Source of the DNA: Escherichia coli
GTDB lineage: Bacteria > Pseudomonadota > Gammaproteobacteria > Enterobacterales > Enterobacteriaceae
Assembly (NCBI RefSeq): GCF_013315695.1
Contig: NZ_CP054353.1
Length of the DNA: 64,000 nt
Reading direction: 5' to 3' (one strand)
Below, in pieces: positions 14,701 to 20,700 of the stretch; positions within the stretch are counted from its first letter, which is position 1; each line of letters starts with the position of its first letter. Position numbers: made by a program.

Positions 14701-17700
14701 CGGGTTACGTGAAGCTTCCAGATAGACCGGCGTCGCCCCCGCCTGAATCAGCGCGCCGTGATGATTCGACTTATGGTTGTTACGGTCAAAGAGCACCAGA
14801 TCGCCACGCGTTAACAGCGCATTCGTCACCACTTTATTCGCTGCCGATGTGCCGTTCAGTACAAAATAGGTTTTATCGGCATGAAAGACTTTGGCTGCGA
14901 ATTTCTGCGCATCCTTCGCCGATCCTTCATGAATTAGCAGATCGCCCAATTTTACGTCAGCGTTACACATATCGGTGCGAAAGACGTTCTCACCAAAGAA
15001 ATCGTAAAAATGGCGTCCGGCAGGATGCTTTTTAAAGAACGCACCATGTTGATGCCCAGGGCAAGCAAAAGTGCTATTACCCATCTCAACGTACTGCGTC
15101 AGCGTGTCATAAAACGGTGGCAGCAAATTCTCTTCATACTGACAGGCTGCGGATTCCAGCTCCAGCCACTGCTGCTCGTTGCCGTTGATTACCGCCGTAA
15201 CGCCCGCAGGTAATTCAACAACATGTTCGGAATACAAAAACACCGGTAGATGAAAACCGGTGCGCTTAAGCAACGCAAGAATGCCACTGCGACTATCCGC
15301 AGCGGTAATGACGACTGCCGCGACGTCCGTAAAATCAGTATCTCCCAACGCCACCACGCGGCGATGAGTAGAAAGTCGGGATACCAGTTCACTACTGGCG
15401 GCAATATTCATTGATTTCATAAGCGCAAAACCCGTTTAGGGGAAGTAAGAATACCGGACAAGGTGGAAAACCCTGCCCCATGAGATATGGGTCAAACTGG
15501 TCACCAGCTCCGACCACCAGACATCAGTAAAAGCAGAAACGCTCTGATTTTACTGTTGTCCTGCAGTGAGCGTGCGTTAACTTCACCGCATGAGCAGTAG
15601 CATAAAAAGAGAAGAGTTTCGCGCGAAACGGCGATAAGCGAGAGAATGTAAGGAGGTGGCGTGCATCGGGCAAACTCCGTACAGAGAGGAGAAAATTCGC
15701 GCAATCATGGCACCTTTCGCTAAAGCGTGCAAGCCAGGACTTTGCGAACAAACAAGCCATCGACGGCGCCAAAAGTTCATAATAAGAAAATCAAACAATA
15801 CAGCTAACAGGAACTCTTGTGGTCATCGGCCCTTTTATCAACGCAAGTGCAGTCTTACTGGGTGGCGTTTTCGGCGCACTCCTTAGCCAACGCTTACCGG
15901 AACGTATCCGCGTCTCCATGACATCAATTTTTGGTCTGGCATCGCTGGGGATTGGTATTTTACTGGTGGTGAAATGCGCCAACCTTCCGGCGATGGTTTT
16001 AGCAACCTTACTCGGAGCTTTAATCGGCGAAATTTGTCTGCTGGAAAAAGGCGTCAATACAGCGGTCGCCAAAGCACAAAATCTGTTTCGTCACTCACGT
16101 AAGAAGCCAGCGCATGAATCTTTTATTCAGAATTATGTCGCGATTATTGTCCTGTTTTGCGCCAGCGGCACCGGGATCTTCGGGGCGATGAACGAAGGGA
16201 TGACCGGCGATCCGAGTATTTTAATCGCCAAGTCATTTCTCGATTTCTTTACGGCGATGATCTTCGCCTGCTCGCTGGGTATTGCGGTGTCGGTAATTAG
16301 TATCCCATTACTGATCATCCAGTTAACGCTGGCGTGGGCTGCCGCGCTGATATTACCGCTGACCACACCGTCGATGATGGCAGACTTCAGCGCCGTAGGC
16401 GGTTTATTGCTGATGGCAACCGGATTACGCATCTGTGGCATTAAAATGTTCCCGGTGGTCAACATGCTTCCAGCACTCCTTCTGGCAATGCCGCTTTCCG
16501 CCGCCTGGACCGCCTGGTTTGCCTGACAATGCGTGCAATAGCGGCAAAGTGATGATAGATTGTGCAGTCTGCACTAAATTGAAGAAATTTGATTGACGAG
16601 ACGAGGCGAATCAGGTTTAATGCGCCCCGTTGCCCGGATAGCTCAGTCGGTAGAGCAGGGGATTGAAAATCCCCGTGTCCTTGGTTCGATTCCGAGTCCG
16701 GGCACCAAATTCATATCAACGGACCTCCACGGAGGTCCGTTTTTCGTTTCAGAACGCCACAATTTAAGCGTTCTGCCTCCAAATCAATTCTACCGAACTC
16801 AACCAGATTCCCCCCACATCAACCCCATTGTGTGGGTATAATTGCGGGTATACCCCAGTTCGACAGAATTTGTACCCTCTTTAACGCATTCAGAAGGCTG
16901 AACTATGGCACTGACTGACGCAAAAATCCGGGCTGCAAAGCCCACTGACAAGGCTTATAAACTCACTGACGGGGCTGGCATGTTCCTGCTGGTACATCCT
17001 AATGGTTCCCGTTACTGGCGTCTCCGTTATCGTATTCTGGGTAAGGAGAAAACCCTGGCACTTGGTGTGTATCAGGAAGTTTCTCTCTCCGAAGCTCGTA
17101 CAAAACGGGATGAGGCCCGAAAACTGATTTCGGAGGGGGTTGACCCTTGCGAACAGAAAAGAGCTAAAAAAGTAGTCCCTGATTTACAGCTCTCTTTTGA
17201 ACATATTGCACGACGCTGGCATGCCAGTAATAAACAATGGGCACAATCACACAGCGATAAAGTACTCAAAAGCCTCGAGACTCACGTTTTCCCCTTTATC
17301 GGCAACCGGGATATCACAACACTCAGTACCCCAGATCTGCTTATCCCTGTTCGTGCTGCAGAAGTTAAACAAATTTATGAAATCGCCAGTCGTCTGCAGC
17401 AAAGAATATCTGCTGTAATGCGTTATGCCGTACAGTCTGGCATCATCAGATATAACCCGGCTCTGGATATGGCTGGTGCATTGACCACGGTAAAACGCCA
17501 GCATCGCCCTGCTCTGGATCTTTCACGCCTGCCTGAACTTCTGTCGCGTATTGACGGTTATAAAGGCCAGCCTGTCACCCGACTGGCAGTTATGCTGAAT
17601 TTACTGGTTTTTATTCGTTCCAGTGAACTCAGATATGCCCGCTGGTCTGAAATTGATATTGACAATGCCATGTGGACTATTCCAGCCGAACTCGAACCTC

Positions 17701-20700
17701 TGCCAGGCGTAAAATTTTCATACCGGGGCTCCAAGATGCGAACACCACATCTTGTGCCACTCAGCCAACAGGCTGTAGCCATACTGGCAGAACTTCAGAC
17801 ATGGGCAGGTGAAAATGGTCTGATCTTTACGGGAGCACACGACCCACGTAAACCAATCAGTGAAAATACCGTAAATAAGGCCCTCAGAGTGATGGGGTAT
17901 GACACAACCAAGGAAGTCTGTGGCCATGGATTCCGGGCGATGGCGTGCAGTGCATTGATTGAATCCGGCTTATGGTCAAGAGATGCGGTTGAACGTCAGA
18001 TGAGTCATCAGGAGCGCAACGGAGTACGTGCCGCGTATATTCATAAAGCAGAACATCTGGAAGAACGTCGGCTTATGCTGCAATGGTGGGCAGATTTTCT
18101 GGATGCAAACAGGGAGGAGTGTATCAGTCCGTTTGAATATGCAAAAGTTAACAATCCACTGAAAAGGTGACTGAACGCCATTTACACACATGCTCTTCCT
18201 CTTAAGGGGAAGAGCACCCGCCTCAATCAATTTCTTTTTTATGCCGGCGGAACCATCAGCCAGGCTGAGGTTCTCATTCAATAACTCAACGTCTTACCAC
18301 AGAACAGAATTCACTGTATTATCATGGGCAACGTTAATCCCGGACAATAAAAGGACACCGATGCCAGGCATCACAATTTTTATAGCCTGCAGGTTATGGT
18401 CCATCCTTTTTTACAGGTTCAGAATATGACTGGCAAATTACGCTTTGAAGTGAACGATAACCAGGGCTGTTTCATATTTCCGGAAACCTGGTTTGGCTCG
18501 TTGCTGGATGAGTTTGAAGAACTGATTGATGCATACGATGCGGATGAAATCAGCGAAACAAGTTACATCAACAAACTCAGGCGCCTTGCCCGACAGGAGA
18601 ATGACTTTATTGATGTACACGCTCACTTGGCATACGTATTTCTGGAGCAGAATGCCCCGCGTAAGGCGCTGAATGCTGCCCTTAAAGGGCTGGCAATTGG
18701 CAATCGTCTTATCCCTGAAGGTTTCAGTGGCAGAATCATCTGGATACATCCTGACAACCGACCTTTTCTTCGTGCCCTCTATGCGGCAATCCTGGCAAAT
18801 GCACATTTACAGCGTCATCAGGATGCCATCATGCTCATTGAAAAAATACTGGATTACAATCCCGAAGATAATCATGGTGCACGCTGGCTACTGGGACCGG
18901 AACTGTTACGCACTGGCGCTCATGAACAGGCACGCCATATACTGCAGGAACATGCAGATGAATTTTCACCTTACTGGTATGAACTCGGCCTTCTGCATTT
19001 TCTTAATGGGGAACTGGTAAAAGCTGCAACTGCATTTCGTCGCGGCTTTGCGGCAAATACTTACATCGCAGAAATACTGTGCGGAAATCTGCATCCATTT
19101 CCACTTGCTGTATGGCATAACTTTTCAGGCGGTCCGGATACTGCCGAAGATTATTATGCCACATACCACCCGTTATGGGGGCAATATCCGGAAGCATTGC
19201 TGTTTGTAAACTGGCTCTATAATCATTCCTCTGTGCTGCATGAACGGGCAGAAATCATTAAATGCGCCGAAATGCTGATGCAGGAAGATGATTTCGAAAT
19301 ATGCGAAAGTATTTTAAGACAGCAGGAGAAGTTGCGTGAAAGAATTGATGAGACGCTTTCTGAGAAAATTGTACAGAAATGCAGAAATATGAATGGTGAA
19401 TATGTCTGGCCCTGGATATTGCCGTTTTCAGCGGCAGGCATGAAACATACTGGCATACAGTATCAGTAGATATTGCATTAGTGTATCCTGCACACAAGTA
19501 ATAATTTATCCACCAATAATAACACTGTTAATGCCCCCTTCCCCTGGTTGTCAGCCAGGGGTTATCTTCTGAATATTTCTTTTGAAAAGGATAACACAGT
19601 AAATTATTTTTATGAATTATCCCATGGACTCATTAACACCCTTTCATGATGCTTTATTGTCAAACACGTTATGGCTGACATCAAAAAAAACCGGATTTCC
19701 TCTGCCAGCGGGTAATCACCTTCCCGGTGTTTTCGGTTGGTCTGGTTACTCCTGTCTGGTTATTAGCAAGATAATTGCTATAAACAGTGGAAAACTCATC
19801 GTACATAATCTGGTGATGAACATTACGCTTATTTTCCCTTGACCGGAAGAATCAGAGGCTGTGGTTTCAGACTGTCTGCCAGTACATTCCTCTCTCCGTT
19901 AAAAACCATAACGGGTTCATTATCTTCGTCTGTCAGCAGATTGAATGGCGGTATATTTTCAGTACGAATGCCGGTCAGCCACTGAAAAATACCTGCGAAA
20001 TGACGGGCACTGATTTTTCTGCTGACGGACTGATGAGACGTGATGTCACTGGCGGTAATAATCAGGGGAACGCTGTAGCCTCCTTGTATATGGCCATCAT
20101 GATGAACAGGATTAGCACTATCGCTGACCGACATCCCATGGTCAGAAAAGTAAAGCATGGCGAAATGACGGGAATGCCGGCGAAGGATACCATCAAGCTG
20201 ACCGAGAAAGTTATCCAGTTTACTGATGCTGGCGAGGTAACAGGCAATTTTTCGGGGATACTGCCCCAGGTAATGATTCGGCCAGGAGTTAAGCCGGTCA
20301 CACGGATTCGGATGAGAGCCAATCATGTGCAGGAAAATCACCTTCGGAGAGGATTTATCCGCCAGTGCACGTTCTGTTTCCTGTAACAACAACATGTCAT
20401 CCGTTTTACGGGAAGCGAAGCTGCCTTTCTTGAGGAAAACGGTATGCTCCGCATCAGAAGCAATAACAGAGATGCGTGTGTCATGCTCTCCCAGTTTTCC
20501 CTGATTGGATATCCACCATGTGCTGTATCCTGCTTTTGCTGCCAGCGCCACCACGTTGTTGCCGGAATCAGGGTTCTGCTCATAGTCATAAATCAGTGTC
20601 CGGCTCAGGGAAGGCACAGTACTGGCTGCTGCCGATGTATAGCCGTCAATAAATAAACCGGGAGCAGTATTCAGCCACGGTGTGGTTGGCACGGGATAGC

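Follow-up and report, generated by a model that had tools for sequence, protein, structure and literature searches.

The attL junction of a P4-type integrase island at the tRNA-Phe gene pheV of Escherichia coli, and its distant attR

Results

We examined a 64,000-nucleotide stretch of Escherichia coli DNA (contig NZ_CP054353.1 of assembly GCF_013315695.1; "the window" below), focusing on the boundary between the core chromosome and a genomic island at the tRNA-Phe gene pheV. The sequence from position 16708 onward is very probably the attL side of a pathogenicity island of about 84 kb, a member of the GI-pheV intP4.1 group (the PAI-CFT073-pheV family) integrated in the 3' end of pheV. Both junctions, the repeat that they share, the family and integrity of the integrase, and a precise empty site could each be established by comparison with other genomes and proteins. 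A preliminary description of the same DNA had placed the left junction of an island, with an adjacent P4-type integrase, at 16632-18170; this span runs exactly from the start of the tRNA to the stop codon of the integrase.

The left junction is defined by where homology to K-12 MG1655 ends. The intact tRNA-Phe (GAA) gene occupies 16632 to 16707 on the plus strand; it is the only tRNA that ARAGORN detected in the window, scores 68 bits against Rfam RF00005, and is identical to K-12 pheV at 76 of 76 positions. Apart from this tRNA, no Rfam family threshold was reached at 15500-19800. Just upstream lies yqgA (15819 to 16526, plus strand), a core chromosomal gene (Pfam DUF554, E = 8e-67) that is named yqgA in matching RefSeq genomes and is itself preceded by speC; given this neighbor, the locus is pheV and not pheU. 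Identity to K-12 spans the whole tRNA and then breaks fully after the terminal CCA, between 16707 and 16708, where K-12 continues as CTAATTCTTAAGAACCCGCCCACAAGGCGGGTTTTTGC, which includes its own terminator, and the window reads AATTCATATCAACGGACCTCCACGGAGGTCCGTTTTTCG. The island is therefore inserted precisely at the 3' end of the tRNA, whose sequence was restored, in agreement with the junction first proposed.

Two details of that proposal need revision. An intrinsic terminator follows the tRNA at 16718 to 16747 (plus strand), with a hairpin at 16718-16741 that begins ten bases after the tRNA, has a 10-bp stem and a 4-nt loop (-17.6 kcal/mol, z = -5.4), and leads into a T-run. It had been taken for the terminator of the tRNA gene. 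Because K-12 homology ends at 16707 and the K-12 terminator differs, this hairpin is instead island DNA standing in place of the ancestral pheV terminator, which was found 3' of attR. The figure of about 200 bp given for the distance to the integrase gene is right when counted from the tRNA 3' end (198 bp) and slightly generous when counted from the T-run of the terminator (∼158 bp). An abrupt change of composition after 16750 was also claimed, for which support is weak. GC content falls from 0.508 in the core (5001-16631) to 0.465 in the island part of the window, a modest and gradual shift with no step at the junction, across which successive 200-bp windows read 0.525, 0.475, 0.505, 0.455, 0.475, and 0.49. 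The integrase gene (0.485) lies within the local scatter of the core, and core DNA at 1001-5000 (0.42-0.46) has a lower GC content than the first part of the island. The pheV junction is thus sharp in homology, at 16707/16708, and not in composition.

The gene at 16905 to 18170 (plus strand) is predicted to encode an intact P4-type tyrosine integrase of 421 amino acids, as had been suggested. The open reading frame is uninterrupted, and the protein carries three domains that score far above the Pfam cutoffs: Arm-DNA-bind_3 at residues 3-88 (PF13356, E = 1e-28), Phage_int_M at 98-192 (PF22022, E = 6e-27), and Phage_integrase at 209-383 (PF00589, E = 1.6e-17). It also matches the solved domain structures of CP4-like integrases (3ju0, 3jtz, and 2kkv). 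In a tblastn comparison with phage records, identity to phage P4 Int was 54.4% over 97% of the protein (E = 1e-149), and pairwise alignment with P4 Int showed conservation of catalytic residues R238, K277, H341, R344, and H368 and of the nucleophile, Y378. From tRNA start to integrase stop, only 17 of 1539 nucleotides differ from CFT073 (98.9% nucleotide identity), with six amino acid differences in Int; this closeness to the Int of the CFT073 pheV island places the gene with intP4.1, the allele adjoining pheV.

To place the other end of the island, we used two near-identical complete genomes, NZ_LR898874.1 (MSB1_4I) and NZ_OZ547117.1 (AF3). The former is collinear with the whole window, with seven substitutions and one indel near 62669; this indel, the only one in 64 kb, sits in a noncoding stretch upstream of sat. 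The window therefore derives from a very close relative of MSB1_4I and not from that record itself. The attL core is the 18-bp tRNA 3' end at 16690 to 16707 (plus strand), or 16685-16707 in an extended 23-bp form. As the preliminary description stated, no direct repeat of the tRNA 3' end occurs elsewhere in the window, whether sought as a 23-mer with up to three mismatches, as 16- to 30-mers with one to three mismatches, or as exact 9- to 12-mers; exact 8-mers matched the tRNA itself and one chance site at 12396. Past the point corresponding to the window end, MSB1_4I carries a sole copy, TTCCGAtTCCGGGCACCA, which matches the core at 17 of 18 positions (20 of 23 in the extended form) in the same orientation as the tRNA. 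This attR repeat, TTCCGATTCCGGGCACCA, occupies positions 849857-849874 of the MSB1_4I record, 84.4 kb after the tRNA end and ∼37 kb past the end of the window. The next 48 nt are the same as those after pheV in K-12, ancestral terminator included, in a flank that begins CTAATTCTTAAG. The junction of attR and flank, CAGTTTCATTCCGATTCCGGGCACCACTAATTCTTAAGAACCCGCC, recurs in AF3 (18-nt core and ancestral flank matched) and in CFT073 (3510883-3510900), and a survey of 5426 complete E. coli genomes found it in 775. The expectation that attR lies beyond the window thus held in both MSB1_4I and AF3, and the downstream search proposed at the time, for a repeat of about 20 bp whose absence was to signify a fixed or degraded island, returned one.

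An uninterrupted form of the site bears on both ends. A reconstructed empty site, composed of the 3' part of pheV, the ancestral flank, and the DNA on the side of the kps capsule cluster, is contiguous in 210 complete genomes at 99.6% identity, which confirms both island boundaries. K-12 pheV is also a precise empty site; excision of the island would restore the attB junction GGGCACCA-CTAATTCTTAAG beside yqgA. We set aside a count of K-12-type empty sites, since some occupied sites reach 80% coverage, in favor of the cleaner kps-context site. Within the 84 kb, neither internal att copies nor a second P4-type integrase gene was found; with one such integrase and no internal att copies, the island is a single element.

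The six annotated arm repeats of P4 were used to derive a weight matrix, with which both strands of 103 kb were scanned for candidate binding sites of the integrase at thresholds of 5, 6, and 7 bits. Single-site matches were not discriminating, as many chance matches scored equally, and only the tandem-pair criterion was specific: at each of the three thresholds, the matrix found only two tandem pairs in 103 kb, and block shuffles lead one to expect 0.08 at 7 bits. One pair consists of tandem 12-bp repeats, GTGTGGGTATAA TTGCGGGTATAC, at 16830 to 16853 (plus strand), 123-146 bp from the core on the integrase side. The other, ATGGGGGCCTCA TTGGTGGCCTCA (that is, ATGGGGGCCTCATTGGTGGCCTCA), lies at the right end of the island, 56-79 bp to the left of the attR core, and both pairs are kept in CFT073. 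We infer that the two pairs are putative arm-binding sites of Int. A TATAAT motif at 16837-16842 falls within the integrase-side pair and is a possible -10 element of the int promoter; in P4, the int promoter overlaps arm sites.

The two att cores also bear on where strands may be exchanged. They differ at one position, G in attL versus T in attR, and their last 11 bp (TCCGGGCACCA) are identical. T at this attR position is common to islands of distant lineages (PMC11537424). If the T came from attP, strands were most likely exchanged somewhere in these 11 nt. Farther inside the island is an AlpA-family gene (Pfam PF05930, E = 5e-9), whose product is a candidate directionality factor. These features suggest the following route of integration. 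A circular form of the island would have carried attP, a copy of the last ∼18-23 nt of tRNA-Phe between two tandem P4-like arm pairs; joining the right end of the island to its left end gives a reconstructed attP junction of ATACAATCAGTTTCATTCCGA[T/G]TCCGGGCACCAAATTCATATCAACGG. The P4-type Int of the island would have recombined this attP with the tRNA 3' end (attB). The presumed attL product, which lies in the window, would be the rebuilt, intact tRNA followed by the island terminator, the arm sites, and int, and the attR product, 84.4 kb away and outside the window, would be the imperfect tRNA-end copy with the original pheV terminator. Excision would need Int together with the AlpA-like protein encoded farther inside the island.

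The island body in the window extends from 16708 to 64000 and, by the annotation of the collinear NZ_LR898874.1, runs on for ∼37 kb past the window. That record carries the cargo modules of uropathogenic E. coli (UPEC): pap, iha, sat, aerobactin iuc/iutA, flu/ag43, and yee. The first cargo gene after int (18396 to 19469, plus strand) is annotated as encoding a tetratricopeptide repeat (TPR) protein; the 357-amino-acid product has weak TPR Pfam matches, and a gene of equal size and position follows int in CFT073. It might belong to an island maintenance module rather than to the cargo. The part of the island within the window then includes a phosphoethanolamine transferase gene split by ISEc22, a degraded pap operon, iha, sat, and the start of iutA. 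The transferase gene (∼19829-23793) is interrupted by this IS66 family insertion sequence (IS), with tnpA, tnpB, and a transposase gene at 20892-23227, and the island contains another ISEc22 copy farther in, past the window. In the pap operon (∼31200-40200), papC is frameshifted (open reading frames at 35989-38223 and 38205-38519), and an inserted IS1 separates papF from a split papG; in AF3, most of the operon is gone. Pseudogenes across the island include the frameshifted papC and abiEii and, with internal stops, iucA and yfjI. The right part holds CP4-like genes, namely alpA, yfjI, antirestriction genes, radC, and a yeeU/cbtA pair.

Outside the island, at 1883-4718 of the window, three genes of a TRAP transporter (328, 170, and 433 amino acids; GC, 0.42-0.46) form an islet between hemW and yggM. 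This islet is present in only 1461 of the 5426 complete E. coli genomes.

Discussion

The assignment of the region from 16708 onward to the left end of a GI-pheV intP4.1 island has several points to set against it. attR lies outside the window, and its position was read from two near-identical genomes rather than from the source genome; the att repeat is imperfect; and IS elements and pseudogenes abound in the island. The arm sites and the crossover region were assigned from sequence, and a scan for consensus promoters between the tRNA and int gave nothing above chance. A 2024 study, moreover, concluded that such islands largely co-evolve with the chromosome (PMC11537424), which makes present mobility doubtful.

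Where the element ends and what kind of element it is could each be read differently. Older island tables place capsule genes in the pheV island (PMC7545054), and the right boundary might accordingly be yghD, with the kps capsule cluster part of the same element, as in the older 123-kb version of PAI-CFT073-pheV. The interval from attR to yghD does hold capsule (kps) DNA that K-12 lacks, and of all single P4 arm-like matches in the 103 kb, the best one is located 64 nt past attR. However, attR is followed by 48 nt of ancestral pheV flank, terminator included, before the kps-side DNA begins, and the 2.6 kb after attR contain no integrase remnant. In addition, 210 genomes have pheV, the ancestral flank, and kps-side DNA without the integrase island, from which it follows that the kps cluster is a separate insertion; we regard a boundary at yghD as very improbable. 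The arm-like match itself (TTGGGTGCATAA, 13.4 bits, minus strand), which is the top hit of the P4 arm matrix and stands just past the 48-nt flank, where the kps-side DNA starts, may be due to chance or be a trace of an older element. That the element is instead a prophage or a P4-like satellite seems scarcely credible. Its integrase and arm sites are P4-like, and its right part has CP4-like genes (alpA, yfjI, antirestriction, radC, and yeeU/cbtA), but the annotation of the 84 kb includes no capsid, tail, terminase, primase-alpha, or sid/psu/delta genes, and a single Rz-spanin annotation of ∼35 amino acids occurs among IS elements. The cargo consists of adhesin, toxin, and siderophore genes, and P4 itself is 11.6 kb long.

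A further question is whether a pathogenicity island with the structure described can still move. The junction could be a historical scar and the island a fixed remnant that, owing to its mismatched attR, IS-driven decay, and perhaps a silent int, no longer excises by site-specific recombination, a prospect to which we give nearly an even chance. In favor of fixation, attR matches attL at only 17 of 18 positions (20 of 23), IS elements and pseudogenes (papC, abiEii, iucA, and yfjI) are many, and K-12 pheU shows that such islands decay into scars; islands with intP4.1 largely co-evolve with the chromosome, and substitutions in attR have been suggested to stabilize them (PMC11537424). On the other side, int spans its full length and keeps every catalytic residue, both arm-site pairs and the AlpA-family gene are intact, and attL and attR do not differ in the last 11 bp of the core. 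As many as 210 genomes have the precise empty site, though in these it was perhaps never occupied. A review reports that PAI V536, a related pheV island, excises, and cites Sakellaris et al. 2004 for an excisionase (recombination directionality factor) that assists a PAI integrase (PMC7545054). Tentatively, and with more doubt than conviction, we consider it possible that the island is excisable by its own Int with the AlpA-like factor, that exchange occurs in the last 11 nt, and that the P4-like arm pairs are working Int sites, the integrase-side pair lying over the int promoter as in P4. If this were true, the host would have permanently taken over island DNA for the terminators of pheV here and of pheU in K-12.

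The left end of the pheV island is an already known feature, and its description here opens no new question. A published catalogue covering thousands of genomes already includes islands of this type along with their integrase and attR (PMC11537424). What we add are the coordinates in this window, the location of attR outside it, the island-derived terminator, and an in silico map of P4-like arm sites. The island carries pap (degraded), Iha, Sat, aerobactin, and Ag43 genes, and its boundaries and mobility consequently bear on the gain and loss of virulence genes in UPEC.

Among known systems, the closest is GI-pheV intP4.1 itself (PAI-CFT073-pheV, or PAI I CFT073), which shares the yqgA-pheV site, the TPR gene after int, the cargo modules, and kps past attR. 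A 2024 PLoS Genetics study of pheV islands found the P4-type int beside pheV to be the only conserved island gene, with five alleles, and its Table 1 lists TTTCATTCCGATTCCGGGCACCA as the attR of intP4.1 islands in CFT073, ABU83972, Nissle 1917, JJ1886, and UMN026 (PMC11537424). This published attR, an imperfect repeat of 19/23 bp with the T substitution, contains the repeat described here and is present exactly in MSB1_4I and CFT073. The CFT073 island differs in size (104.7 kb versus ∼84.4 kb here). Relative to CFT073, no hly genes are annotated in the present island, pap is degraded (papC frameshift, IS1 in papF/papG), and extra ISEc22 copies are present; the capsule region beyond attR has polysialic acid (neu) genes here, whereas CFT073 is listed as K2.

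Phage P4 (X51522) is also among the close systems: its Int is 54% identical with the same three-domain layout, its target is likewise a tRNA 3' end, and its core lies between tandem 12-bp arms related in sequence to those of the island. The spacing is similar, with the far arm 54-77 bp from the core in P4 and 56-79 bp in the island, and the integrase-side arm at 113-136 bp and 123-146 bp, respectively. The island repeats (TTGCGGGTATAC and ATGGGGGCCTCA) are more degenerate than that of P4 (TTGGGGGCATAA). P4 targets leuX rather than tRNA-Phe, its 20-bp core is identical in attP and attB (in contrast to the 17/18 repeat of the island), and it is an 11.6-kb replicating satellite, unlike the 84-kb nonreplicating island. 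PAI V536 of UPEC 536 and the she PAI (SHI-1) of Shigella flexneri share the tRNA target and the P4-like integrase class and differ in cargo (K15 capsule and pix in one; pic/set in the other). Their repeats are about 22-23 bp, and the 2004 work of Sakellaris et al. reportedly concerns the she PAI.

A further relative is found at the second tRNA-Phe locus of K-12, pheU, where the 133 nt after the tRNA are ∼92% identical to window positions 16708-16840, a stretch that takes in the terminator hairpin and one arm repeat, TTGCGGGCATAT. In the yjdQ pseudogene that follows, Int amino acids 1-11 are fused to amino acids 359-420. The sequence at NC_000913.3 4362191-4362550 (minus strand) is thus a decayed scar left at K-12 pheU by this island family; it differs from the island described here in its location at pheU, its internal deletion, and its lack of cargo, and is not an island. 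Since the same hairpin is part of the scar, the terminator serving pheU in K-12 is island derived, as is the one that follows pheV in the window.

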